In this document: positions 31,086 to 45,553 of the stretch, piece after piece
Layout: each line of letters begins with the position of its first letter
Position numbering within the stretch: position 1 is the stretch's first letter
Assembly: GCA_050253335.1 (NCBI GenBank)
Contig: JBFWJG010000014.1
Location: 1-45,553 of the forward strand
From: Deferribacterales bacterium
GTDB taxonomy: Bacteria > Chrysiogenota > Deferribacteres > Deferribacterales > Geovibrionaceae
Direction: 5' to 3'
Length of the DNA stretch: 45,553 nt
Position numbers and translations under genes: made by a program
Notes under the pieces: model-generated
The model's input: only the letters and a program-made list of their open reading frames with translations
Databases searched by the model: none
Told to the model about the DNA's origin: nothing

Positions 31086-31508
31086 ATGAAAAACGCGATT
31101 ATTTTTCTCTTTGCCGCATTCATTGCGGTTTTCACGGCGTTTTCCCCTTCCCCTGCGGCTGCGGGCATCCTGACTGAATCGTCCGGAAGCTCTCCGGCAT
31201 GTATTTCATGTCATTCTGTTTCCGCAATGGGGCTTGAGGGAGGCTTTCTCGCATCGGACATAAGCAGTTTTGCGGAGGATTTCGGCGCAGAGGGAGCGGC
31301 GGATTTCCTGAAGGATATTCCTATTGAGGTTATGGCGGCGGCCTATTCCGCAAGGCCTCTCACCGACGGGGATATTGAAGGACTGCTCAGGGATTTCGAA
31401 GGCGGAAAGGTGTTCGGGATTAACCATATTGCCGCGGGCGCGGCTTTGGCTTTTGTGCTTACGCTGTTTTTGCGGTTTGTGTTCCGCCGCAGAGGAGGCA
31501 GGGAATGA
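31086..31508 (+). CDS. Membrane-anchored monoheme cytochrome c (NarC-like)
   Basis: Signal peptide, one CxxCH (CISCH), a candidate axial Met (EVMAAAY) and a C-terminal TM; ATGA overlap with narG. Confidence 0.8.
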   Translation: MKNAIIFLFAAFIAVFTAFSPSPAAAGILTESSGSSPACISCHSVSAMGLEGGFLASDISSFAEDFGAEGAADFLKDIPIEVMAAAYSARPLTDGDIEGLLRDFEGGKVFGINHIAAGAALAFVLTLFLRFVFRRRGGRE

Positions 31509-34500
31509 CAGTGAAAAAATCAGACCATATGAAGGATATACATAAACCCGCGGAAAGGGCGGGCGAGGATTTTTACCGTGTGCGCAGCACCTACGACAAG
31601 GTTGTGAGAAGCACTCACGGGGTGAACTGCACCGGAAGCTGCAGCTGGAATATCTATGTCAAAAACGGCATTGTCACCAATGAGCTTCAGGCGGTGGACT
31701 ACCCTCAGCTTGATCACGAAATCCCTAACTATGAACCCAGAGGCTGTGCAAGGGGAGCGTCATTCTCATGGTATCTCTACAGCCCTCTGAGGGTGAAATA
31801 CCCTTATGTCCGGGGAAGGCTTCTTGACCTGTGGACGGATGCCAGAAAACGCTTCGCTGACCCTGTCGCCGCGTGGGAATCAATAATGACGGACGAAGCG
31901 GCGAGAAAATCCTTTCAGCAGGCAAGGGGAAAGGGCGGGCTCAGGCGAACAGACTGGGACACTGTCCTTGACATCATTGCCGCATCAACAGTTTACACTG
32001 TCAAAAAATACGGTCCGGACAGGATAACCGGCTTCTCTCCCATTCCTGCCATGTCTCAGGTGAGCTATGCGGCGGGGGCGAGGTTCCTCCAGCTCATAGG
32101 CGGTTCATGCCTCAGTTTTTACGACTGGTACTGCGACCTTCCCGCCGCCTCACCCCAGATATGGGGCGAGCAGACTGACGTGTGCGAAAGCGCCGACTGG
32201 TACAACTCCATGTACACAGTGCTCATGGGTTCCAACGTCAGCATGACGAGAACGCCCGATGCCCACTTCCTTGCGGAATCAAGATACAAGGGCACAAAGG
32301 TTGTGGTGCTTTCGCCGGACTACAGTCAGGCGGTTAAGCACGCGGATCTCTGGGTTCCCCTGAAAAAGGGGCAGGACGCCGCCTTCTGGCTTGCTGTCAA
32401 CAACGTTATAATAAATGAATTCTACAATAAAAAAGACACACCGTACTTCACTGAGTATGTGAAGAAATACACCGACCTTCCTTTTCTCGTGAGGCTTGAG
32501 GAGACCAAAGACGGCTTTAAGGCGGGCAGGTATCTCCGTGCCTCGGACATTGACTCATTTGCGGGCGAAGAGAACGCGGCGTGGAAAATGCTCCTCATGG
32601 ATGAGTCCACAGGGGCGCTCTACTCCCCCAAGGGAACCATAGGCTACAGATGGGCAAAGGAAAAGGGTAAGTGGAACCTTGAAAGCACAGACGGGATAGA
32701 GGGTCTGGAACGTTCGCCCGTGCTCACTTTCAGTGATGCCGAGGTTGAACTCTGCACTGACGGCTACGGCGCGGAGGGTGAATATTCCCCCGTGAAAAGA
32801 AAGGCTGGAGCGAAAAAGATAAAAACCGTTCACGGCGATGTTTATGTCGCCACTGTTTTTGACATACTCCGTGCCAGCCTCGGCGCAGGAGAGAACTATT
32901 ACGAAAACGCCCCGTACACACCCGCATGGCAGAAACAGTTCACAGGCATAGAGCCGGAAACGGTAATAAAGGTTGCCCGTGAGTTCGCCGAAAACGCCGA
33001 GAAGACCGGCGGCCGTTCCATGATCATAATCGGAGCGGGCGTAAATCAATGGTATCACTCAGACCTTTCGTACAGAGCGGCAATAATGGCGCTTATGCTC
33101 ACAGGCTCCGTCGGGGTAAACGGCGGCGGGCTTGCGCACTATGTCGGGCAGGAGAAAGTGGCTATGCTTTCCTCATGGTCGGCTCTCGCCATGGCAGGGG
33201 ACTGGTGCAAGCCTCCGAGGCTCCAGAACGCTCCGTCCTTCTGGTATATCCACTCGGATCAGTTCAGGTATGAGGGCTCTGTGTTCGACTACTTCGCAGT
33301 GCCTGATAAGGAGAAGTTCAAAGAACAGCACTCCGCGGATTTCAATGCAAAAGCTGTCCGGCTGGGCTGGCTGCCTTTCTACCCGCAGTTCTGCGGAAGC
33401 TCCATAGACGCAGCGGAGGAGGTTCTCCGCGAGGCTGACGGGGACAAGGCAAAGGCGATGAAGATAACCGCCTCAAAACTGAAAAAAGGGGAGATGAAAT
33501 TCGCTGTAGAGGAACCGGATAATCCTGAGAACTTTCCCCGCGTTTGGTACATTTGGCGCGGAAACGCCATATCATCCAGCGCAAAAGGGCATGAATACTT
33601 CCTCAAGCATGTTCTCGGCACGGATCACTCAGTCCACGCGGAGGAGACAGGCTTCGGATTCGAGAACATAAAAGGCGCAAAGGGCGCGGAAGGAAAGGTC
33701 GATCTCATAGTGGATCTCAACTTCCGCATGGACACCTCCGCCGTTTATTCGGACATAATTCTCCCCGCCGCCACATGGTATGAGAAGAATGACCTCAACA
33801 CCAGCGACATGCACACCTTTGTGCACCCGCTGACAGAGGCTGTTCCGCCCCTTTGGGAATCCGCGGGAGACTGGGAGATCTTCCGCCGCATAGCCGAAAA
33901 ATTTTCGGAAACGGCATCGGCGCATTTCCCTAAGCCGGTTTACGACCTTGTGGCGACCCCCCTTGCCCACGATTCGCCGGACGAGATAGCTCAGGAAAAT
34001 GTAACCGACTGGAAATACGGCCACGAAGACCCCATACCCGGCAAAACCATGCCGAAGCTGACCTTTGTGGAACGTGACTACAGAAAAATACACGAAAAAT
34101 ACATAACCCTCGGCAAAAGCATAAGGGAAAACGGCATAGGCGCCCACGGCGTTAGCTGGAACAGCAGAGAGGAATATGACGACCTGAAAAAGATCAACGG
34201 TTCAAGATACATGGAAGGGGAGGAGATGGCTGATGTGTCAACAGCGCTGAAAGCCTCTTCCGCGATTCTCCGGCTTGCGCCGGAGGGGAACGGGCAGGTG
34301 TCCCTCAAAGCGTTCCGGGATCTTGAAGCGAAGACAGGCAGACCGCTCGCACATCTTGTTGAGGGGTATGAACAGTATTCTGTTTCGTTTGACGAGATAA
34401 CCCGCCAGCCCCGCAGGATAATCAACTCCCCCTGCTGGAGCGGCAAGATAGAAAAGGGGAGAACCTACGCCCCGTACACGCTCAATGTTGAGGATCTTGT

Positions 34501-35086
34501 GCCGTGGCGCACCCTCACGGGGAGACAGCAGTTTTATCTGGATCATGAAATGTATATTCAGGCGGGGGAAAACCTTCCGGTTTACAAGCCTGAGCTGGAT
34601 ATGGAAATGCTGGGCGAAACGGAGGGCGGAGACGGGCTTGTGCTCAACCTCCTCACCCCTCACGGAAAATGGAACATCCACAGCACATACTTTGACAATG
34701 AAAGGATGCTCACCCTCTCAAGGGGCGGTCAGTGCGTATGGCTCAGCGAGAAGGACGCGGAAAAGGCGGGCATAGCCGACAACGACTGGCTTGAAATGAG
34801 CAACAGAAACGGAAATGTGGTGTGCAGGGCAGTGGTCAGCGTGCGCATACCTGAGGGAATGTGCCTGATGTATCATGCGCCGGAACGCACCATAGATGTT
34901 CCCTTGAGCCCCTCAACAGGCAAAAGGGGCGGCGTGCACAACAGCCTCTCCCGTGTGCGGCTCAAACCCACCCTCATGGCGGGCGGCTACGGGCAGTTCA
35001 CATACTATTTCAACTACTGGGGCCCCATAGGTGTAAACAGGGAAACCTTTGTGAAAATAAGAAAACTTAATGAAGTGAGGTACTGA
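31505..35086 (+). CDS. narG: Respiratory nitrate reductase alpha subunit
   Basis: STHGVNCTGSCSW, PRGCARGASFSWY, SFYDWYCDLP (Asp ligand), WRTLTGRQ and TPHGKWNIHS. No Tat signal, so probably cytoplasm-facing. Confidence 0.97.
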   Translation: MTVKKSDHMKDIHKPAERAGEDFYRVRSTYDKVVRSTHGVNCTGSCSWNIYVKNGIVTNELQAVDYPQLDHEIPNYEPRGCARGASFSWYLYSPLRVKYPYVRGRLLDLWTDARKRFADPVAAWESIMTDEAARKSFQQARGKGGLRRTDWDTVLDIIAASTVYTVKKYGPDRITGFSPIPAMSQVSYAAGARFLQLIGGSCLSFYDWYCDLPAASPQIWGEQTDVCESADWYNSMYTVLMGSNVSMTRTPDAHFLAESRYKGTKVVVLSPDYSQAVKHADLWVPLKKGQDAAFWLAVNNVIINEFYNKKDTPYFTEYVKKYTDLPFLVRLEETKDGFKAGRYLRASDIDSFAGEENAAWKMLLMDESTGALYSPKGTIGYRWAKEKGKWNLESTDGIEGLERSPVLTFSDAEVELCTDGYGAEGEYSPVKRKAGAKKIKTVHGDVYVATVFDILRASLGAGENYYENAPYTPAWQKQFTGIEPETVIKVAREFAENAEKTGGRSMIIIGAGVNQWYHSDLSYRAAIMALMLTGSVGVNGGGLAHYVGQEKVAMLSSWSALAMAGDWCKPPRLQNAPSFWYIHSDQFRYEGSVFDYFAVPDKEKFKEQHSADFNAKAVRLGWLPFYPQFCGSSIDAAEEVLREADGDKAKAMKITASKLKKGEMKFAVEEPDNPENFPRVWYIWRGNAISSSAKGHEYFLKHVLGTDHSVHAEETGFGFENIKGAKGAEGKVDLIVDLNFRMDTSAVYSDIILPAATWYEKNDLNTSDMHTFVHPLTEAVPPLWESAGDWEIFRRIAEKFSETASAHFPKPVYDLVATPLAHDSPDEIAQENVTDWKYGHEDPIPGKTMPKLTFVERDYRKIHEKYITLGKSIRENGIGAHGVSWNSREEYDDLKKINGSRYMEGEEMADVSTALKASSAILRLAPEGNGQVSLKAFRDLEAKTGRPLAHLVEGYEQYSVSFDEITRQPRRIINSPCWSGKIEKGRTYAPYTLNVEDLVPWRTLTGRQQFYLDHEMYIQAGENLPVYKPELDMEMLGETEGGDGLVLNLLTPHGKWNIHSTYFDNERMLTLSRGGQCVWLSEKDAEKAGIADNDWLEMSNRNGNVVCRAVVSVRIPEGMCLMYHAPERTIDVPLSPSTGKRGGVHNSLSRVRLKPTLMAGGYGQFTYYFNYWGPIGVNRETFVKIRKLNEVRY

Positions 35087-35088
35087 TT

Positions 35089-36513
35089 ATGGATGTCAGG
35101 GCGCAACTTTCGATGGTTCTTCATCTTGATAAATGCATAGGCTGCCACACCTGCTCCGTCACCTGCAAGAACCTTTGGACAAACAGAAAAGGGACGGAAT
35201 ACATGTGGTGGAACAATGTTGAGACACGTCCCGGCACAGGCTATCCGAAAAACTGGGAGGATCAGGCAAAGTTCCGCGGCGGATGGGAGATAAAGGACGG
35301 CTCCCCCGTGCTCAGGGCGGGCTCCAAATGGGGAATACTCTCGCGTATTTTTCATAATCCCGACCAGCCTGTGATGAAAGATTACTACGAGCCTTTCACA
35401 TATGACTACGCCAATCTCATGGACGCTCCGGAAAGCGTGAACCAGCCCATAGCCAGAGCCAAATCCCGCGTAACGGGCGAAAACATGAACATTGAGGCAG
35501 GCCCCAACTGGGACGATGACCTAGGCGGCTCAAAGAAATATGCGGCGAATGATCCCAACCTCACAGATGAGGACAGGGCGCTTTTCGGCGAGTTTGAGAA
35601 AATTTTTATGATGTACCTTCCCCGCCTGTGCAACCACTGCCTTAATCCGGCGTGTGCGGCGGCCTGCCCCTCCGGCTCTATATATAAAAGAGGTGAGGAC
35701 GGCATAGTCCTGAACGATCAGGAAAAATGCCGTGCGTGGCGCTACTGCGTCAGCGCATGCCCCTACAAAAAAATCTATTACAACTGGGACAGGGGCAAGT
35801 CGGAGAAGTGCATCTTCTGCTATCCGAAAAGCGAAAACGGCGAACCCTCCGCCTGCGCTCATTCATGCGTAGGGCGCATCCGCTACACTGGGGTTCTCCT
35901 TTACGATTACGACAGGCTCATTCAGGTTCTGGACGCGCCGGAGGAAACCCTTGTCGATGCTCTGAGAAGCTGCATCCTCGATCCTTCCGATCCGGAGGTC
36001 AGAAAGAACGCGAAAAAGGCGGGCATAGAGCCGGACTGGATTCAGGCGGCGGAAAACTCCCCCGTTTATGCCTTCGTGAAGGAATTCGGGCTTGCCCTGC
36101 CGCTCCATCCGGAATTCAGAACATTCCCCATGGTGTTCTACGTTCCTTCGCTTTCCCCTGTACTGCGCAAGGCGGAAACGGATATGACAATGGAAAACTT
36201 CCGCATTCCGGTTAAGTATCTGGCTTCGGTTTTCACCGCAGGCAATGAAACTGCCGTGGAGGACACGCTGAAAAAGCTTCTGGGCATAAGGAGCTACATG
36301 CGCGGCAAGGGGCTTGATGACAATGAGCTTATGGAAAAGGGTGTGTCCCTTTCCGGCTGGAGCGGGCAGGAGCTCGAAAAGGCCTACAGGCTCACTTCCC
36401 TTGCCAATTTTGCGGGAAGATTCGTGATACCGAAAACCCGCAGGGAAAACGGTTGTTCGTATGAAATGCAGGGTGCAGAGGGGTTTTTGAATCATGGAAA
36501 AAACAAACGCTGA
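35089..36513 (+). CDS. narH: Respiratory nitrate reductase beta subunit
   Basis: LDKCIGCHTCSVTCK, PRLCNHCLNPAC, CRAWRYCVSACPYKK and PLHPEFRT. Confidence 0.97.
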   Translation: MDVRAQLSMVLHLDKCIGCHTCSVTCKNLWTNRKGTEYMWWNNVETRPGTGYPKNWEDQAKFRGGWEIKDGSPVLRAGSKWGILSRIFHNPDQPVMKDYYEPFTYDYANLMDAPESVNQPIARAKSRVTGENMNIEAGPNWDDDLGGSKKYAANDPNLTDEDRALFGEFEKIFMMYLPRLCNHCLNPACAAACPSGSIYKRGEDGIVLNDQEKCRAWRYCVSACPYKKIYYNWDRGKSEKCIFCYPKSENGEPSACAHSCVGRIRYTGVLLYDYDRLIQVLDAPEETLVDALRSCILDPSDPEVRKNAKKAGIEPDWIQAAENSPVYAFVKEFGLALPLHPEFRTFPMVFYVPSLSPVLRKAETDMTMENFRIPVKYLASVFTAGNETAVEDTLKKLLGIRSYMRGKGLDDNELMEKGVSLSGWSGQELEKAYRLTSLANFAGRFVIPKTRRENGCSYEMQGAEGFLNHGKNKR

Positions 36514-37021
36514 AGATATATTCAAATCCTTCGCAGTGCTGACGGACTACCCGTCCGATCTGTCTGTGGTGAAGGAGCACTGCCGCAGGCTGGAATACGC
36601 GGGACTGGCGGAAGGGTGTTTCGCTCTTCTGCCGTCAGACACGGAAGCCCTGCAGGAGGAGTACACAAGGCTTTTCGACTTCGGCAGGGATACAGCTCCG
36701 TATGCCGCCTTTCATGTGTTCAGCGATGAAAGGAGAAGAGCCGCTTTCATGGCGGGGCTTATGGGCAGGTACGCCGAAACCGGCTTTAAGCGCAGAACGG
36801 GCGAGCTGCCGGACTATATCCCCTATGTTCTCGATTTTATAAGCGAGAGCGGGGCGGAAAGGTGCGCTGAACTGACGGAAACTCTTTCGCAGGCGGCAGA
36901 AAGAATAGCCGCCGCCCCCATGCTGAGAAAAAGCGGCTACGGGCTGATTTACGGTTCTCTGAAAAAATTTGCTGATGAATGCCTCAAAGGAGGGGAAGAT
37001 GAGCTGGAACACATTCTTTAA
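36494..37021 (+). CDS. narJ: Nitrate reductase maturation chaperone
   Basis: LQEEYTRLFD and ELPDYIP; lies between narH and narI. Confidence 0.85.
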   Translation: MEKTNAEDIFKSFAVLTDYPSDLSVVKEHCRRLEYAGLAEGCFALLPSDTEALQEEYTRLFDFGRDTAPYAAFHVFSDERRRAAFMAGLMGRYAETGFKRRTGELPDYIPYVLDFISESGAERCAELTETLSQAAERIAAAPMLRKSGYGLIYGSLKKFADECLKGGEDELEHIL

Positions 37022-37658
37022 TATATTTCCGTATATAACTTTGGCTGCAGCTGTTTTCGGGACAGCGGCGGCTTACCGGAACAACAGGTACAGAATAAGC
37101 ACCCGCGCAGGCGGGTTTCTGGAAAACAGAAAGCTCTGGGGTTCTGTTCCGTGGCATTACGGAATAATCATTGTCCTCACCGGACACGTGATCGGTGTTA
37201 TTGCGCCGTCCTTTGTGCTCTCGCTCACCGGAAATATGGGAGTGCTCGCGGCTCTTGAAACCCTTGCCTTCTCGGCGGGTCTGCTCTGCCTTTTCGGACT
37301 TGGTGCGCTCATTCTGAGGAAGCTTTCGGACAGATACGCCCTCTCACAGACTCAGGCGGGAGACTGGCTTGTGCTTGTGCTTCTTGTTTTTCAGGTGCTC
37401 AGCGGGCTTTATATCTCGGCGTTTCACAAATGGGGCATCAACTGGTATGCCTCAAACGCTTCTGTTTATGTTCTCTCCGTGCTGAAATTCAGCCCGCAGG
37501 GGGACATTATAACGGCTCTGCCCCTTGCCGTCAGGCTTCATGTTCTCAATATGTTCCTGATTATCGGGGCTCTGCCTTTCACAAGGCTGATCCATGTTTT
37601 TGCAGTGCCGCTGAAATATCCTTTCCGCCCGCACATAATATTCAGATGGAACAGGTAA
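36999..37658 (+). CDS. narI: Respiratory nitrate reductase gamma subunit (cytochrome b)
   Basis: FPY, WHYGIIIVLTGH and LH..PFTRLIH (four heme His). ATG 36999 follows GGAGGGG. Confidence 0.92.
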   Translation: MSWNTFFNIFPYITLAAAVFGTAAAYRNNRYRISTRAGGFLENRKLWGSVPWHYGIIIVLTGHVIGVIAPSFVLSLTGNMGVLAALETLAFSAGLLCLFGLGALILRKLSDRYALSQTQAGDWLVLVLLVFQVLSGLYISAFHKWGINWYASNASVYVLSVLKFSPQGDIITALPLAVRLHVLNMFLIIGALPFTRLIHVFAVPLKYPFRPHIIFRWNR

Positions 37659-37668
37659 GGAGGAAGCT

Positions 37669-38973
37669 ATGAGCTATATCGCAAAAGGCTCGCCCCTAAA
37701 AGGTCTTACGGGAGCCACACTCGGCTTCTTCTTCGGGTTCGCGGCGGTCGCCCTTTTCGGGCCGACGGCAAAAAAACTTCAGGTGATAATGGGAATAAGC
37801 CCTGCGCAGGTCGGTCTTCTGGTGGCTATTCCGGCTTTGTCCGGCTCGCTTCTGCGAATCCCATTTTCCGCATGGGTGGATAAGGACGGCGGGCGGAAAC
37901 CGTTCATGGTTCTCCTTCTTATGGCGCTTGCGGGTATGGTGGGTCTCTCCGCGCTTTTTCTCACCAGATACCCGGACAACATGACGGCGGATCTCTATCC
38001 GCTGATTCTTCTCTTCGGCTTTATGAGCGGCTGCGGCATAGCCACATTCTCAGTGGGGATAAGTCAGGTGGCCTACTGGTTTCCGCAGAAGAAGCAGGGC
38101 TGGGCTCTGGGGACCTTCGGCGGTCTGGGGAACCTTGCCCCGGGGATATTCTCGTTTCTTCTGCCTCTGGCTTTATCGATAATGCCTCTTCCGGCCGCTT
38201 ATGTTGTGTGGAGCCTCATTCTCTTCACCGGCGTTTGCGTTTACTGGTTTACGGCGTTCAACGCCCCGTATTTTCAGGCGCTTTCACAGGGCGCCTCGAA
38301 GGAGGAGGCCAAAGAATTCGCGGTAAATCTTTACTCCGAAGCCTCGCAGAAGCAGGAGCTTTTCCCCTCCGGCGGCGTGGTGTACACCCTTGTCAAGTCA
38401 GCCTCCAATCCGTATACATGGATACTTGTCCTGCTCTATTTCGTGACCTTCGGCGGGTTCATCGCACTCACCGCGTGGTTCCCGACATTCTGGCAGTCGC
38501 TCTACGGCTTTTCGGTGACTTCGGCGGGTTTCCTCACTGCGTTTTACGCGGTTCTCACCTCCCTTTTCCGTGTGCCGGGCGGCAGTTTTGCGGATAAAAT
38601 AGGCGGAACTGCGGCGTCGCTTGTATCTGTGGCTGTTCTGGGCGCGGGTTCTCTTCTTGTGGTGTTCACGGGTAATTTTCCTCTGACAGTCCTCGGCATA
38701 ATGCTTATGGCGGTGGGCATGGGGGTCAACAACGCGGCAGTTTTCAAACTCGTTCCGAAATACATACCCGAAGCAATAGGCGGAGCGGCGGGCTGGGTAG
38801 GCGGACTCGGAGCCTTCGGCGGCTTTGTCCTCCCCCCTGTGCTGGCTTCATATGTGAGCAGAAACGGAGACGCGGGCTACAGACAGGGCTTTATCGTTTA
38901 TGTTCTGATGGCTGTTCTGTCTGTGCTGCTTATATTATTTCTTAAAAGATCTGAAAAGAGAGGCGGCAGATGA
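37669..38973 (+). CDS. narK: Nitrate/nitrite MFS transporter
   Basis: LLRIP, GxGN nitrate signature (GGLGNLAPG), TFGGF and GWVGGLGAFGGF. Confidence 0.88.
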   Translation: MSYIAKGSPLKGLTGATLGFFFGFAAVALFGPTAKKLQVIMGISPAQVGLLVAIPALSGSLLRIPFSAWVDKDGGRKPFMVLLLMALAGMVGLSALFLTRYPDNMTADLYPLILLFGFMSGCGIATFSVGISQVAYWFPQKKQGWALGTFGGLGNLAPGIFSFLLPLALSIMPLPAAYVVWSLILFTGVCVYWFTAFNAPYFQALSQGASKEEAKEFAVNLYSEASQKQELFPSGGVVYTLVKSASNPYTWILVLLYFVTFGGFIALTAWFPTFWQSLYGFSVTSAGFLTAFYAVLTSLFRVPGGSFADKIGGTAASLVSVAVLGAGSLLVVFTGNFPLTVLGIMLMAVGMGVNNAAVFKLVPKYIPEAIGGAAGWVGGLGAFGGFVLPPVLASYVSRNGDAGYRQGFIVYVLMAVLSVLLILFLKRSEKRGGR

Positions 38974-39332
38974 AGGATATTATTTTTCAGATGGCTGAAA
39001 AGACGGACGACGGAATAATGTATGTGACCGCTGACGGAAATATCGCTTACTGGAACAGGGGATGCGAGAGGATTTTCGGTTTCTCGGCCGCTGAGGCGGC
39101 GGGAGCGAACCTTGATATTATCATCCCCGAAAAACACAGAAAAAGGCACTGGGACGGTTTTCACAAGGTTCTGGAAACCGGCCGCACAGCCTATTCCGGC
39201 AAGATGCTCAAAGTTCCCGCCATAAGAAAGGACGGGGAAAAGCTCATAATCGAATTCAGTATGCAGATTATTGAACAGGAAGGAAAAAACGCAGGGTTTA
39301 CGGCTATTGTCAGGGATGTTGCACAGAAATAA
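38970..39332 (+). CDS. Stand-alone PAS domain protein (FixL-like heme PAS possible)
   Basis: IAYWNRGCERIFGFS, LDIIIP..RH, RKDG and IVRDV; ATGA overlap with narK. Confidence 0.85.
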   Translation: MKDIIFQMAEKTDDGIMYVTADGNIAYWNRGCERIFGFSAAEAAGANLDIIIPEKHRKRHWDGFHKVLETGRTAYSGKMLKVPAIRKDGEKLIIEFSMQIIEQEGKNAGFTAIVRDVAQK

Positions 39333-39335
39333 AGA

Positions 39336-39367
39336 AAAAAGCGGGCGGAAAAGCCCGCCCGCTTTTT
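39336..39367. terminator. Bidirectional Rho-independent terminator between the nar operon and the tRNA
   Basis: AAAAAGCGGGCGG-AAAAGC-CCGCCCGCTTTTT. Confidence 0.88.
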
Positions 39368-39370
39368 AAA

Positions 39371-39444
39371 CGCCCTCGACATGATTCGAACATGTGGCCT
39401 ATTGATTAGGAATCAATCGCTCTATCCTCCTGAGCTACGAGGGC
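39371..39444 (-). tRNA. tRNA-Arg(CCT), CCA not encoded
   Basis: The reverse complement folds as GCCCTCG/CGAGGGC acceptor stem, GCTC/GAGC D-stem, ATTGA-TTCCTAA-TCAAT anticodon arm and ACATG-TTCGAAT-CATGT T-arm, with discriminator G. Confidence 0.96.
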
Positions 39445-39454
39445 GTGAGAAAAA

Positions 39455-39649: not shown

Positions 39650-40438
39650 ATGGGAGAAATAATAACCTTCGCGAATAAAAAAGGAGGGAGCGGAAAAACT
39701 TCCGCTGTTCTTAACATAGGCGCGGCGGCAGGGAGCAGGGGGAAAAAGATCCTTCTGATCGACCTTGACCCGCAGGCGCATCTCTCCTACTGGTCCGGCG
39801 TTAACACCTATGACACCTACCCCAATATCTACGGCGCGGTGCTGGGTGAATATTCCGCCGATGACGCTCTTTTTAAGCCCTCCCACGGGCTTTATGACAT
39901 TATCCCTGCCTCCACGGGCTTCTCTCACCATGATCTGCGCAGGCTCCTTGACGGAGTAAGCGTGGAGGCGAAGCTCGCAAAGTGTCTTTTAAAAATCAGG
40001 GAAAGATACGACTATATCTTCATAGACACGCCCCCGACCGTGGCGGTGCTTACGCTGAATGCCCTTGTGGCTTCCAGATTCGTGCTTATTCCCGTTCTTC
40101 TGAACTTTCTTGCCATTGAAGGTCTGGCGCAGCTTGCCCAGAACATTTACCGCATAAACATGGCGCACAATCCTGATCTTCGGATTATGGGCATCATCCC
40201 CAACCAGCACGACATCAGGAGCAACCATGCCAAAAAGGTCATGAAGGAGCTTTACGAGAACTTCGGCGAGGATATGGTCACCCCCAGAGTCAGGAGCGAT
40301 GTCAAAATAGCCGAGGCTCCGGAGGCAAGGCTCCCCATAAATCTTTACGCTCCGGCAAGCAGAGGAGCTATGGATTTCAGCATTCTGACCGATTACATCC
40401 TCAGCAAAGTCGAGGAGGAAGCGGGAGTGAAGAAATGA
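39650..40438 (+). CDS. ParA/Soj-family ATPase (orphan, chemosensory-operon type)
   Basis: Deviant Walker A NKKGGSGKT, LLIDLDPQA and YDYIFIDTPP; no parB follows. The probable start is ATG 39650, preceded by TG-C-TATTAT and no SD. Confidence 0.9.
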   Translation: MGEIITFANKKGGSGKTSAVLNIGAAAGSRGKKILLIDLDPQAHLSYWSGVNTYDTYPNIYGAVLGEYSADDALFKPSHGLYDIIPASTGFSHHDLRRLLDGVSVEAKLAKCLLKIRERYDYIFIDTPPTVAVLTLNALVASRFVLIPVLLNFLAIEGLAQLAQNIYRINMAHNPDLRIMGIIPNQHDIRSNHAKKVMKELYENFGEDMVTPRVRSDVKIAEAPEARLPINLYAPASRGAMDFSILTDYILSKVEEEAGVKK

Positions 40439-41934
40439 AACGCTGCGTGGGTATAGATTTCGGAACCAGCAATTCCATGATAGCCGTCTGCAGGGACGGC
40501 GGAACAATAGATATTATAAGCTCTGAAAGCGGCAAGAGGTATCTGCCGTCCGTTATATATTTCAAAAACGGAAACGAAGCCGTGATAGGGGACAACGCAA
40601 AAAGCATGCAGCTTCTGGAGTCCGAACACACTATTGCGAATATCAAGAGATACATGGGGACAGACATGAAGTTCCCGCTCTACGGAAGGGAGTACAGGGC
40701 TGAGGAGCTTGCCTCGCTTATTTTCCGCAAGCTTAAAAAAAGCTTCGAGGATTACTCCGGCGAGAAGGAGGCGGACGCGGTTGTCACTGTTCCCGCTTAT
40801 TTCGATCATTACCAGAGGGAGGCTGTGCGCTCCGCCGCCGAGAATGCGGGGTTCAATGTTCTGCGTCTTCTGAACGAGCCCACATCAGCCGCTCTTTTTT
40901 ATAATAACATAGGCAAAAACACAGGCGATGTCTGCATGGTTTTTGACCTTGGAGGAGGCACGCTGGACATAAGCCTCATCGAGATGAAGGCGGACTGCTG
41001 CAAGGTTCTTTTCACAGGCGGCTCCACCGAAATCGGCGGAGTGGATTTTGATGTTATGGTTGCGGAGTATTTCATTGAAAACTTCCGCAGACAGCACGGG
41101 ATAGACCTTAAAAGCGACCCCATAGCCTATCAGCAGCTTCTTTTTCAGGCTGAGAAAGCAAAGATGGAGCTTTCCTCCCTGAACGAGGTGAATCTGGTTG
41201 TGCCTTATATCACTGTCACCAAAAAAGGCGCCCTGCATTTCAAGGAAACAATCACCAGGGAAACATTTGACAAAATCACAGCCCCCCTCACAAAGGGGAT
41301 AAAAAGCATAATAGACAGCCTGCTTGAATCAAACGGGCTTAAAGTCGAAGATATCGCAAAGGTTCTCCCCGTTGGCGGGGCATCCCGAATTCACAGCGTC
41401 CGCAGGCTTATAGCCGATATTTTCGGGGACAGGGTGAGGAAAGACATGAATCCGGAGGAGGCCGTAGTGAGCGGCGCCGCGGTGAACGCTGCAATGCTTT
41501 CCGGTCTGATGAACGACAAGGTTTTTCATGATGTAACCTCGCACAATCTGGGCATAGAGGATGATGACGGAAACTTCGAAGTAATCTTAAAGAAAAACGA
41601 AGTTTACCCTGTTGAGTTCAGCATGGTTTTCACCACTTCAGAGCCCGAAAGGAAAAATATTACTGTTCATATTCTGCAGGATATGGCAAAATCGTCACTA
41701 AACACAGGGGATTCCGTTGCTGAGAATCCCGAGCATTTCGTCAGTCTGGGCAGATTTTCAGTTGATATAGACATACCGGACGGCGGGGAACCTTTAATTG
41801 ATATTTCATTCATGATCGATGAAAGCGGAATCATAAGCGTTAAGGCGAAGGATGTCCGCTCGGAAAAAGAGACAGACTTCACACTCAGACTGAAAATTGA
41901 AAATGAGATTTTGAATACATTGGAAATATTCTGA
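40435..41934 (+). CDS. Hsp70/DnaK-family protein lacking the C-terminal helical lid
   Basis: [39 protein letters not shown] and NPEEAV, plus an SBD-beta-like region; ends at 499 aa. Confidence 0.9.
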
Positions 41935-41953
41935 GATTATTCGGAGGAAAGCT

Positions 41954-44194
41954 ATGAAAAAACTGGCAAAGCCGTCAAGCCTTGAAGGCAGAACCGGGCT
42001 TGTGAAAAAAGAGGGAGTAGAGCTTCAGAAAAAAAGGGATGAAGCTAAGAGAACCGCCGCAGAAAAAGCGCGCACAAGAACCCTTGCCAAACAGCAGGCA
42101 AATGCGGAAAGGCTCGCCACCGCTTCTGAAGAGATGGCTTCCGCCATTGAACAGTCAAGCAGTGCGGCTAATCAGCTCGGAGACGCCATGGTTCAGGTCA
42201 CCGTGGCTTCGGCTCAGGTAAGCAGAACCTCCGAAAACATCAAGAACGAAACAGTTCAGCTTGAGCAGATAAGCCGCAAGGTTTATGACAACTCAAACAA
42301 GTACGACGTGGCTATCACCAAAATGAACGACCGCGTGGAAAATACCGTGGGAGCCGTCAAGGAGCTCAGGGAAAGCGTTGACAACACCACCAACAAGGTT
42401 GTCGAATCCACCTCCCTCGTGGAACAGCTTAAAGAAAAAGCAGGCTCCATTGAGCAGATAGTTCAGGTTGTTAAAAAGATAGCCGACCAGACAAACCTTC
42501 TGGCGCTGAACGCCGCAATCGAAGCCGCCAGAGCCGGAGAACACGGCAAAGGCTTTGCCGTTGTGGCGGATGAGGTGAGAACCCTTGCGGAAGTGTCTGA
42601 AGGCGCGGCAAAGGATATCAAGATCGTAATAGATTCCTCCCTTGAACAGGTCAGTCGTGTGGTGGAGAAAGTTACCGCATTTACCAAAGGCTCAAAAACA
42701 AACCTTTTCAAGGCAGACTTCATAAGCAACAAATGCGTTTCCATTAATGACGCCACAAAAATAATGCGTGAGCAGGTGGGCAAAATCAAGAAGGATTCCG
42801 AAAGCATCTGCATAGAATCCGGCAAGTCCCTTGATATTGTAAACCGCCTCGCCGCCGCCACGGAGCAGAACGCCACAGCCTCCGAAGAGGTAAGTAAATT
42901 CACCGAGGAACAGGCGAAGGCCTTTGCCGAGCTCACCGCCGCCGCCAATGAGATTGCGGAAATGTCTGAGGAGCTTAAAAACTCCACGGATATGTCAAAA
43001 TCATCCGAGGAAGTCGCCGCCGCCGCTGAGGAGCTTTCCGCAACGATCGAAGAGCTCAACGCCTCCGCGGAAGAGATACAGAAAGCGATAGACCAGATAG
43101 ATACAGGTACTCAGGAAATGGGTGAGGAACTCGGCGGAATAAAGCACGAGTTCAACACCATGCAGAAACTTCTGGACGAAGGGAACGAGTGCTGGGCGGT
43201 CATGATGGTTGAGGGTGAGAAAATCCTTGTGGAACTTGAGGAAATTAAAGCTCTTGACCATATCGTGTTCATAAACCAGCTTCAGGAAGCGCTGAACAAC
43301 AATACCCCGTTTGAAGGCCAGCTCGACCCCACAAAATGTGCCTTCGGCGCATGGTATCTCACTTACAAGCCCCACGACCATGATGAGGAAAAATGCTATC
43401 ACTCCATCCGTGAGCCTCACAACCACGTGCACCTCGGAGCGGCTGAGATAGTCCGCCTCATGCAAGAGGGCAAACTCGGCGAAGCCAGAGAGGTTTTCAA
43501 ACTCAAGGTTCTTCCGGGCGTGGACGGTTTCAAGAAGGAATACAGAGGCTTTCATAACGGTATTGAGCTTGTGGCGCTGGGCTTTGTAAAAAGCGTGGAG
43601 AGCATCAGGGAAATAAGCTCTGAAGTTAAACAGCTTTATAAATCATTCAGCAACATAAAGAAAATTGTAGATACAATAAACAACGTCGCCATACAGACAA
43701 ACATGCTCGCTGTTAACGGCAGCATTGAAGCCGCACGCTCCGGCGAATTCGGCAGGGGTTTCTCCGTGGTTGCCTCCGACATCCGCTCGCTTGCCAGCGA
43801 ATCCGCAGACAACGCCGACAAAATGAAGGACATTCTTGAAGAGATGTACGAGCAGACGGACAATTTCCAGACCGAACTTCAGGAAATAGGCCAGCTTATC
43901 CGTGTTCAGATAGAGAAGTCCGAAGTGGCAGTCGTCAACCTTATCGAGACAGTCAGACTCAGGACTGCCGCCGCTGAAACCCGCAGGGTTTCACAGGCGT
44001 TCTTTGAGGAGGGCGGTCTCATGGTTTCCAGAGTCAACTCAGCGTGCAACGAAAGCCTTGAGGTAGCGGAGAAGCTCAGAAAACTCACCGACGAGGCGAA
44101 ACTCGCCGCTGATGAGCAGGTGAAAGGGCTTAACGAAATAGCCGCCGCCGCTGAAGAGGTTGCTTCTCTCGCAGACGAAATGCAGGCTTACTGA
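41954..44194 (+). CDS. Cytoplasmic chemoreceptor with two signalling tips (DosM-like) and an inserted CZB zinc-binding domain
   Basis: No TM. Tip 1 is [30 protein letters not shown] and tip 2 is [33 protein letters not shown] motifs [13 protein letters not shown] and PHNHVH. Confidence 0.9.
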
Positions 44195-44211
44195 TTTTTT
44201 AAGGAGCGTAC

Positions 44212-45553
44212 ATGGCTGAAATGAGCCCCGCAGCGGCATTAAACGGGGCGGAGCATTCTGATAAAAAGTATGTTTCGTTTACCGTAGGTTCGGAATATTT
44301 CGGAATACCCATAGATGAGGTGAGGCAGATTATACGCCTGCCGAGGGTCACCCGTGTGCCCAAGATGCCTGTTTTTGTTTTGGGCATAAGCAACCTCAGG
44401 GGGAGCGTTTTGCCCGTTCTTGATCTTTCCCTGAGACTCGGATACCCGAACCCCTGTGTCCATGGTGAGGACACAAGGGTGATTGTCACAGAGAAAGGCG
44501 GGTTTGAGATAGGCTTCGTGGTTGAATCGGTCAGCGAAGTGAAGTCCACCGAGACCGGCTCTTATGAAGAGATGCCCGAAATGCTTAACAGCGGGGCTGA
44601 CAGAAAGTTTATCTCCGGTGTTCTCAAGATGCGCACAAAGGACGGCATAAGGCTGGTTCAGGTTCTGGATTCCAGAGAACTTGTCAATATAGCCGAGATT
44701 CAGCGCAGTGTTGATGATTCATCCGCCCAGAGGGGCTTTGCGATGAAGGCCGATTCCTCCGAGCGTGAAACCTCGGACTACAGGCGCTTCATAAGCTTTG
44801 AGATAGACGGCCACGGCTACGCCATAGAAATTCACAGGATCAATGAGATAATCCGTCTCCCTGATTTTGTCGCCGTTCCCGGGCTGGAAAGCTATGTAAT
44901 GGGAATTTTCTCTCTCAGGGAAAAAGTTATCCCCCTTATGTCGCTTCACAGGAAGTTCGGCAAGAAGGAACGGCCGGATACGGAAGATACAAGGGTTGTC
45001 ATCATAGAGATAGAGAAAACGCTTGTGGGATTTATCGCAGACAGGGTGAGCGAAGTGCTCAGCGTGCCCGAATCCTCCATAGAGGAACCGCCCAAGGTTT
45101 TTGCCGAGTCCGGTTCCGAGATTGCCTCAATCATCAAGGCGGAAGAAGGGGAAAGGCTCGTTATGATTCTGGAAAGCGATAACCTGCTTCAGGCAAAAGA
45201 GGTGGAAGCCCTCAGAAAGCTTGCCCAGCAGGAAGGAGGAAGTTTTTCCATGAATGAAGCATCAGCCTCCGCAGATGAGGAAAAACAGATAGTCACATTC
45301 ACAATTGAGGATGAGGAATACGGAATCTTTATAGAAAAGGTTCAGGAAATCAACAGATACATAAACGTGACGAAAGTGCCAAAGACTCCGGCCTTCGTGG
45401 AGGGGATAGTAAACCTCAGAGGCGAGGTTATTCCTCTCATAGATTTAAGAAAGAGGTTTGAGCTCCCCGTCAGGGAAAAGGACGAGTTCACAAGAGTGAT
45501 AATAGTTAATCTCGCCAGTGTCCGTGTGGGCTTTGTGGTGGAAGATCGGAAGA
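44212..45553 (+). CDS. cheW: Triple-domain CheW, 3'-truncated (absent from the ORF track)
   Basis: Manual translation from AAGGAG-ATG 44212 gives three CheW repeats: YVSFTVGSEYFGIPI..GISNLRGSVLP, FISFEIDGHGYAIEI..GIFSLREKVIP and IVTFTIEDEEYGIFI..GIVNLRGEVIP. Confidence 0.9.
   Translation, partial: MAEMSPAAALNGAEHSDKKYVSFTVGSEYFGIPIDEVRQIIRLPRVTRVPKMPVFVLGISNLRGSVLPVLDLSLRLGYPNPCVHGEDTRVIVTEKGGFEIGFVVESVSEVKSTETGSYEEMPEMLNSGADRKFISGVLKMRTKDGIRLVQVLDSRELVNIAEIQRSVDDSSAQRGFAMKADSSERETSDYRRFISFEIDGHGYAIEIHRINEIIRLPDFVAVPGLESYVMGIFSLREKVIPLMSLHRKFGKKERPDTEDTRVVIIEIEKTLVGFIADRVSEVLSVPESSIEEPPKVFAESGSEIASIIKAEEGERLVMILESDNLLQAKEVEALRKLAQQEGGSFSMNEASASADEEKQIVTFTIEDEEYGIFIEKVQEINRYINVTKVPKTPAFVEGIVNLRGEVIPLIDLRKRFELPVREKDEFTRVIIVNLASVRVGFVVEDRK
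45543..45553 (+). other. Probable Illumina adapter remnant at the sequence end
   Basis: The terminal AGATCGGAAGA equals the first 11 nt of the TruSeq adapter AGATCGGAAGAGC. Confidence 0.85.

Follow-up and report, generated by a model that had tools for sequence, protein, structure and literature searches.

A lidless Hsp70 encoded beside ParA at the head of a class F9 chemosensory operon in Deferribacterales

Introduction

The positioning of receptor clusters by orphan ParA proteins is established (PMC9178275, PMC2829493, 10.1101/2022.06.09.495121), with PpfA of Rhodobacter sphaeroides and ParC/ParP of Vibrio as examples (PMC9178275, PMC2829493, PMC7534058), and the accessible text of one report places ppfA homologues in the che operons of 37% of 206 species (PMC2829493). 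Here we analyze a chemosensory operon that shares with these systems an orphan ParA encoded among che genes. It lies in a Deferribacterales bacterium (GenBank assembly GCA_050253335.1, contig JBFWJG010000014.1, positions 1 to 45,553; this whole stretch of 45,553 nucleotides is referred to as the window) and encodes, directly after ParA, an Hsp70 without the helical lid. No Hsp70 is described for PpfA or ParC/ParP in the available parts of their reports, whereas in the present operon parA and hsp70 are coupled, and other lineages add a TPR protein with a ParB-like peptide.

The chemosensory class concerned, F9, is defined in the accessible text of PMC9321776 by a receptor with two signalling domains encoded beside a triple CheW. 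For Vibrio cholerae, the part of PMC7534058 available to us reports F9 arrays that are cytoplasmic, double-layered, held by the receptor DosM and of no known function; cluster I of this organism encodes DosM (VC1403), CheW3 (VC1402) and CheA (VC1397) (PMC7534058, PMC9321776). Hsp70 proteins have been linked to neighbouring processes. HscA and HscC are, like the protein described here, second, operon-linked Hsp70s with probably few clients (PMC8215388, in part), and the closest experimental parallels are Myxococcus StkA/SglK and Synechococcus DnaK1, connected genetically or through binding with chemosensory or phototaxis pathways (PMC4319316; PMC13710413). These last we liken to the present protein by description only; in the text available they are not placed within a che operon, and DnaK1 acts with DnaJ1, GrpE and type IV pili. 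In Borrelia, bb0264 is reported as the last gene of the flgB operon (10.1101/2024.01.09.574855, in part).

Full-text searches, which left most subscription literature outside their reach, returned no paper on an F9-linked Hsp70 family; two F9 surveys, PMC9321776 among them, mention DnaK or Hsp70 nowhere in the main text, and a survey of DnaK paralogs (PMC11019930) does not mention chemotaxis. F9 systems and positioning by ParA are already published; the Hsp70 module is a real and conserved, apparently undescribed accessory of a known chemosensory class. As to its role, we tentatively favor a dedicated Hsp70 clamp on the N-terminal tail of DosM, which, together with ParA, would position the array or remodel it.

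Gene order and class of the operon

The operon is headed by four genes on the forward strand, parA, hsp70, dosM and cheW3, in an order read directly from the sequence. The first, parA (39650..40438), encodes an orphan ParA of the Soj/PpfA type of 262 residues, and its 3' end shares an ATGA overlap with the start of hsp70 (40435..41934), which encodes 499 residues: an ATPase domain, an altered interdomain linker, a beta substrate-binding domain and a short tail. After a spacer of 19 nucleotides (nt) follows the gene for a DosM-type cytoplasmic chemoreceptor of 746 residues (41954..44194), in which a CZB zinc-binding domain is inserted in addition to the two signalling domains, and after another 17 nt cheW3 (44212..45542). 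The contig end truncates cheW3, and its remainder lies on an overlapping contig (C16) of the same genome (G000; C6 and C45, below, are further contigs of it, other G numbers denote genomes of relatives, and L numbers denote individual loci). On C16 the end of cheW3 is followed by cheB, STAS, cheY, HEAT, cheR, cheY, cheA (974 residues) and a gene for a REC protein. The initial annotation, made from the window alone, had been correct on coordinates, spacers, overlap, receptor and triple CheW. It had also pointed to the absence of an adjacent dnaJ or grpE, which extends over the first 15 kb of C16; the housekeeping genes hrcA-grpE-dnaK-dnaJ sit apart, on C45.

Domain searches found two MCPsignal domains and the CZB domain in DosM and three CheW stretches in CheW3. 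Since a two-signalling-domain receptor thus adjoins a triple CheW, the operon is classed as F9; cheB, cheR, cheY and cheA lie in the same cluster, in the order of the Geovibrio row in table S6 of PMC9321776. That table already lists the Geovibrio, Denitrovibrio and Deferribacter clusters as F9, but its gene orders begin at dosM and omit parA and hsp70. The double-tip receptor and triple CheW followed by cheB, HEAT, cheR, cheY and cheA are common to V. cholerae cluster I, whereas the CZB domain, which in this family lies inside DosM (43259-43453 in the window), is a difference from the published F9 class; at another locus (L076:10382-12247) it lies inside the CheW protein. For Syntrophomonas and Syntrophothermus, the same table leaves three genes in the interval from cheA to dosM without a name; we infer by analogy that these are parA, a TPR gene and hsp70, because metagenome loci show the same order. 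Two further observations concern the extent of the operon: at L065:8427-16408 dosM and cheW3 occur together as a tandem repeat, in which the second copy of DosM retains the tail motifs described below, and a 490-residue protein lacking a Pfam hit closes the F9 operon (L004:7670-9142, C16 of G000), being conserved in most relatives and encoded on the opposite strand in G014.

Conservation and distribution

The phylum was surveyed in 68 genomes. An hsp70 paralog with an identity of at least 51% was found in 16 of them, namely the source genome, 14 of 15 other members of its family, and G014, and CheW3 in 17, the same 16 and G012; G024, at 99% completeness, has neither. Geovibrio, Limisalsivibrio, Denitrovibrio and Deferribacter came out as its closest relatives with a name, which makes the source genome a Geovibrio-like one within Deferribacterota. 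All 15 relatives for which loci were fetched carry parA-hsp70-dosM-cheW3-cheB-STAS-cheY-HEAT-cheR-cheY-cheA, so that the first four genes are ordered alike in 16/16 carriers, and the ATGA overlap of parA and hsp70 is kept in 12 of the 13 Deferribacterales loci checked. As the kin are not independent, these counts show an inherited block rather than a repeated association. The DosM of G012 is sister to that of G014 in the DosM tree; because G014 has the Hsp70, this points to a loss of hsp70 in G012. The short length of the Hsp70 is not an assembly error, as 15 related genomes carry open reading frames of 498-522 residues; with length and stop conserved, truncation or an assembly artefact was rejected.

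A genome scan with the single protein gave one true locus. Outside the phylum, protein searches returned many relatives, mostly of 470-545 residues, with Syntrophomonadaceae, Syntrophothermus, Desulfobacterota, Desulfamplus, Thermotogae, Marinitoga and Caldatribacterium among the names attached to the matching protein sequences; an Atlas search gave generic Hsp70 clusters only. A metagenome scan with an alignment of the C-terminal part of the clade yielded 50 loci, their phyla being inferred from named neighbours. Scored against a clade profile that was itself partly built from these loci, 37 were nearer the clade than DnaK, 12 were not and one (L088) stayed unclassed; the 37 include L101, a marginal call (365 vs 359 bits) without F9 context, and the other 36 fall into 25 groups at 90% and 15 at 70% identity. 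A DosM-like gene lies within 2.5 kb downstream in 32/37 clade loci (four of the misses have at most 150 nt of downstream sequence, the fifth is L101), and parA lies upstream in 27/37, every miss having less than 1.5 kb of upstream sequence. Neither was found at any of the 12 non-clade loci, and a J domain was present at 5 of these vs none of the 37. The linkage, which the initial annotation had considered might be confined to one genome, hence occurs in 16/68 genomes of the phylum and at metagenome loci, and it spans several groups of anaerobes.

The initial annotation had also proposed a survey of F9 operons for Hsp70 and J genes; J genes were absent from the clade loci. Because hsp70 is missing from G012 and from 4/4 proteobacterial loci, the Hsp70 is not a general F9 part; it marks one branch.

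Features of the Hsp70

With a PF00012 score of 406 bits, an ATPase domain and a beta substrate-binding domain, the protein belongs to the Hsp70 superfamily, and its best sequence matches in the PDB are DnaK. The catalytic residues D8, K71, E148, D171, T176 and D178 are kept (D8, K70, E171, D194, T199 and D201 of Escherichia coli DnaK, whose numbering is used hereafter), and these six DnaK positions together with P143, R151 and D393 are invariant in all 20 Hsp70s of F9 context. The interdomain linker reads DKVFHDVT vs DVLLLDVT in DnaK and is polar at two positions, and the subdomain IB insert, present in DnaK of E. coli and of the source genome itself, is missing. Nine residues remain after the position of DnaK 507, with 0-34 across clade members, and the AlphaFold model (predicted local distance difference test (pLDDT) 89.8, predicted template modelling score 0.90) is devoid of lid helices; its last elements are a helix of four residues and a short strand. 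Alignment and model thereby bear out what had been read from the sequence alone about retained ATPase residues, altered linker, and missing lid and IB insert. In Deferribacterales, the substrate-binding domain carries an insert of about 10 residues (41678-41731), which is longer than in TPR-bearing lineages and contains a low-confidence loop at residues 419-425.

The J-domain contacts of DnaK are given as E206, D211, E217 and D477, and K414-D326 as part of a clamp that restrains hydrolysis (PMC8215388, in part). In the window Hsp70, E206 is kept, E217 is changed to K and D477 to M. Among the 20 Hsp70s of F9 context, position 217 is K or R in 17 and E in none, D477 is kept in one, D326 in none and E206 in 16; among 18 DnaK-like rows, E217 is kept by all and E217, D477 and D326 each by 16-18. 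In the clade, I401, F426, V436 and I438 of the peptide pocket are either retained or replaced conservatively, and the arch over the pocket is acidic, with D for T403 in 18/20 and for M404 in 17/20. These residues point to an ATPase that is probably active, with a pocket for peptides that would suit a basic client but trap it weakly, and with DnaJ used little if at all.

Conserved pocket residues would also be expected of an HscA-like chaperone that folds or assembles the long DosM coiled coil or CheW3 once during biogenesis, is unrelated to ParA, and neighbours it only as both serve the array. This explanation, which we regard as rather unlikely, gains from the adjacency of hsp70 and dosM, the tightest of the locus (32/37), whereas TPR, REC-fusion or kinase genes can part parA from hsp70, and from G012 and two plasmid loci, where ParA persists although Hsp70 is missing. 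It fits poorly with the missing lid: according to the available text of PMC8215388, HscA and HscC retain a lid and their own adjacent J proteins, and truncation of the lid abolishes the protection of folding intermediates by DnaK. The translational coupling of parA and hsp70 in 12/13 Deferribacterales loci is likewise at odds with a role apart from ParA.

A truncated dnaK copy riding on a mobile operon, with no role at all, is highly improbable. F9 operons do move by horizontal transfer (PMC9321776, in part), and hsp70 can be lost, as in G012; yet across lineages that share about 40% identity overall the catalytic residues do not vary, there are clade-specific substitutions, the position of hsp70 survives rearrangement of the operon, and no clade member with sufficient flanking DNA was seen outside an F9 locus.

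Phylogenetic placement

In a quick tree of 67 rows, all 20 Hsp70s of F9 context fell, together with 18 of unknown context, into one branch of 38 rows (Shimodaira-Hasegawa-like approximate likelihood ratio test (SH-aLRT) 100, stem 0.49), apart from DnaK, HscA and HscC, of which the latter two form long branches. The phylogeny that the initial annotation had called for hence gives a separate F9 clade. The scores remain below the equivalog cut-offs for DnaK (416 vs 648 bits for NF001413, 411 vs 822.55 for TIGR02350) and HscA (324 vs 708.55 bits for TIGR01991), identity is 36% to the DnaK of the source genome and about 31% to each of HscA and HscC, and the alpha-helical lid and hydrophobic VLLL linker that mark DnaK are lacking. 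Membership in DnaK, HscA or HscC was rejected on cut-off scores, comparison of identity and residues, and the tree; HscA and HscC differ furthermore in having a lid and adjacent J proteins. The DosM subclades mirror those of the Hsp70, with a Spearman coefficient of 0.66 for pairwise distances over 18 loci that are not independent.

In another family of the phylum, a second lidless Hsp70 of 495-499 residues was observed (L050:12118-13605 in G001, L051:12045-13544 in G003, L052:5368-6867 in G002). It is set in flhG-fliA-cheB-fliM-fliY-hsp70-cheY-cheZ-cheA, and no J gene was found in these 19-kb loci. These proteins resemble the F9 Hsp70 in being lidless and encoded within motility genes, yet they keep E217, R167 and D326, and their J-contact residues are retained; that of G003 is 50% identical to the DnaK of G000. 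Their inclusion in the F9 family is not supported, as they fall outside the F9 clade in the tree, and lid loss may, to judge from these sequences, have occurred twice in motility-linked Hsp70s.

ParA, the TPR protein and the DosM tail

The ParA has an intact deviant Walker A motif and is encoded in a che operon with a cytoplasmic receptor and without ParB, as is PpfA; the chromosomal ParB of the genome is on C6, adjoining Soj. Two basic residues of the orphan ParA, R190 and K219, are matched by arginines in this chromosomal Soj, at positions that we take to be the DNA-binding sites R189 and R218 of Bacillus subtilis Soj.

Outside Deferribacterales, the interval from parA to hsp70 encodes a free TPR protein of 122-157 residues, or else the TPR unit forms part of a REC and NMT1-like fusion protein; such a unit is found in 26/37 clade loci, nearly always directly upstream of hsp70. 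The free protein starts with a basic and aliphatic peptide resembling the N-terminus of the chromosomal ParB of G000, and peptides of this type suffice to stimulate ParA (PMC12462528, in part). The TPR protein with its ParB-like peptide would therefore be a better candidate than the Hsp70 for direct contact with ParA. No TPR adaptor was found elsewhere in the source genome, and it has no ParB-like N-terminal peptide other than that of its chromosomal ParB; four relatives gave weak matches only, inside frames of 500-870 residues, and a profile search with the TPR alignment was dominated by long repeat proteins.

The position of the TPR unit just 5' of hsp70 would also suit a direct linker, in which the Hsp70 binds ParA or the TPR protein (ParA - adaptor - Hsp70 tail) and has CheW3 or CheA, not DosM, as its client. 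At the C-terminus, many clade members indeed share a conserved motif, first basic and then hydrophobic, which the model shows as confidently ordered. This motif and the TPR unit do not covary, however: Deferribacterales keep the hydrophobic end without a TPR protein (none found in 5 genomes), and several loci with fused TPR encode an Hsp70 without a tail. We consider this arrangement improbable.

Where the TPR unit is fused, it lies at the end of a REC and NMT1-like protein (nitrate/sulfonate-binding type) in the parA-hsp70 interval (L077:1104-2987, L079:1171-3063, L082:3780-5666), a fusion that could possibly add sensory input to the module. Such fusions would accord with a signalling regulator, an Hsp70 that, in a way similar to that proposed for StkA, would respond to stress or to the ATP/ADP level by masking or freeing CheA, the receptor tail or the enzymes of methylation. 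Myxococcus StkA is genetically upstream of the Dif chemosensory proteins (PMC4319316, in part), and without the D326-K414 clamp basal ATPase activity would rise and the cycle could become free of J proteins (PMC8215388, in part). Across differing operon orders, hsp70 is nevertheless grouped with parA and the ParB-like peptide and not with cheA, cheB or cheR, and such a regulator seems quite unlikely. J proteins, as sought with a home-made J-domain profile of 7 sequences, were not found at F9-clade loci; the source genome encodes two, both away from the F9 locus.

The clamp on the DosM tail draws on the receptor's residues 1-19 (41954..42010), a proposed docking site for ParA, Hsp70 or both that carries the motifs K-x-L-x-x-P and T-G-[ILV]. 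In all 24 Hsp70-linked DosM tails L4, P7, T14 and G15 are invariant. T-G-[ILV] is present in these 24 and in none of 5 tails without Hsp70, G012 included, and K-x-L-x-x-P in 21/24; G012, which has parA only, retains K-x-L-x-x-P without T-G-[ILV]. The four proteobacterial tails contain neither motif, and their DosMs form a separate clade. This distribution suggests that one motif may serve ParA and the other Hsp70. Co-folding with the receptor, a check put forward in the initial annotation, gave a weak verdict for binding of the Hsp70 to the tail: Hsp70 with DosM 1-60 scored 0.45, the best of 3 controls 0.00, with at least 51% of contacts shared between runs and a partner pLDDT of at least 57. 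The mark is reached by 116/157 solved and 2/215 mismatched pairs, and at scores of at most 0.60 by 18 solved pairs and both mismatches.

Flanking sequence and transcription

Upstream, a terminator-like stem (39336-39367) and a tRNA-Arg(CCT), together 39336..39445 on the reverse strand, divide the operon from nitrate-reductase genes. The region 31086-39332 holds a respiratory nitrate-reductase-like cluster, an MFS transporter and a stand-alone PAS protein, the cluster being identified by eye from translations and only the PAS protein by domain scan; the genes in this place vary among relatives. A promoter scan returned 6 sites vs 5.0 expected by chance. In four compost metatranscriptome runs, all from one study and possibly with DNA carry-over, RNA contigs from a close relative bridge hsp70-dosM and dosM-cheW3, and one of them also spans the upstream tRNA and terminator, which limits its value as a sign of co-transcription. 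The final 11 bases of the window (45543-45553) mismatch the overlapping contig and the RNA contigs and are presumably a sequencing-adapter remnant.

Discussion

Gene order, co-loss and phylogeny lend good support to what the initial annotation had put forward, a specialised Hsp70 probably tied to double-layer cytoplasmic arrays and ParA. In the mechanism that we tentatively favor, the Hsp70 would bind the unstructured N-terminal tail of DosM in an ATP-gated manner, its acidic pocket arch (DD at DnaK T403/M404) taking the basic tail around T-G-[ILV], while ParA would bind the nucleoid and carry the array as PpfA does in Rhodobacter. Without a lid, binding would be brief and clients few, as expected of a clamp rather than a folding machine. 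In TPR-bearing lineages, the ParB-like peptide of the TPR protein would trigger ParA; in Deferribacterales, which are without it, the basic K-x-L-x-x-P end of DosM would be the likeliest trigger, with the Hsp70 gating or presenting this end.

Several points weigh against this mechanism. In G012, parA ends 97 nt before dosM and the only Hsp70 found in the genome is DnaK; on plasmids of Proteobacteria, according to the gene tables of the records, 4/4 F9 loci located via CheW3 have no Hsp70 within 9 kb, and two of them have ParA. As ParA is present without Hsp70 in G012 and these two plasmid loci, the Hsp70 is dispensable for ParA in some systems, and F9 arrays of V. cholerae are reported to form with DosM and CheW3 (PMC7534058, in part). 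The link between tail motif and Hsp70 depends on one independent loss, that of G012, the Hsp70 tree is a quick one, and the co-fold pass may stem from the predictor's memory of solved Hsp70-peptide complexes.

A bolder version, which we hold to be unlikely, would take the Hsp70 out of the DnaJ/GrpE cycle altogether: gated by ATP, it would clamp the protein cargo to a nucleoid-surfing ParA system, forming a two-ATPase tether that holds the DosM tail and times when the array is moved, split or released by ParA. If true, this would be the first J-independent, lidless Hsp70 to serve as an adaptor for cargo, with the two proteins of Deferribacterales as its minimal form.

Placement, inheritance and turnover of cytoplasmic F9 arrays are described as open and their function as poorly understood in the available text of PMC7534058. 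To these processes the module adds specific candidate parts by name, namely a ParA, a subfamily of Hsp70 and the short DosM tail, in which four residues are invariant. The module occurs in cultured species (Geovibrio, Denitrovibrio and Deferribacter, by source names) and is small enough to be rebuilt in vitro. A natural Hsp70 that, judged by its sequence, lacks the lid and J-domain contacts while keeping its catalytic residues would allow one to probe whether a client alone can drive the Hsp70 cycle.

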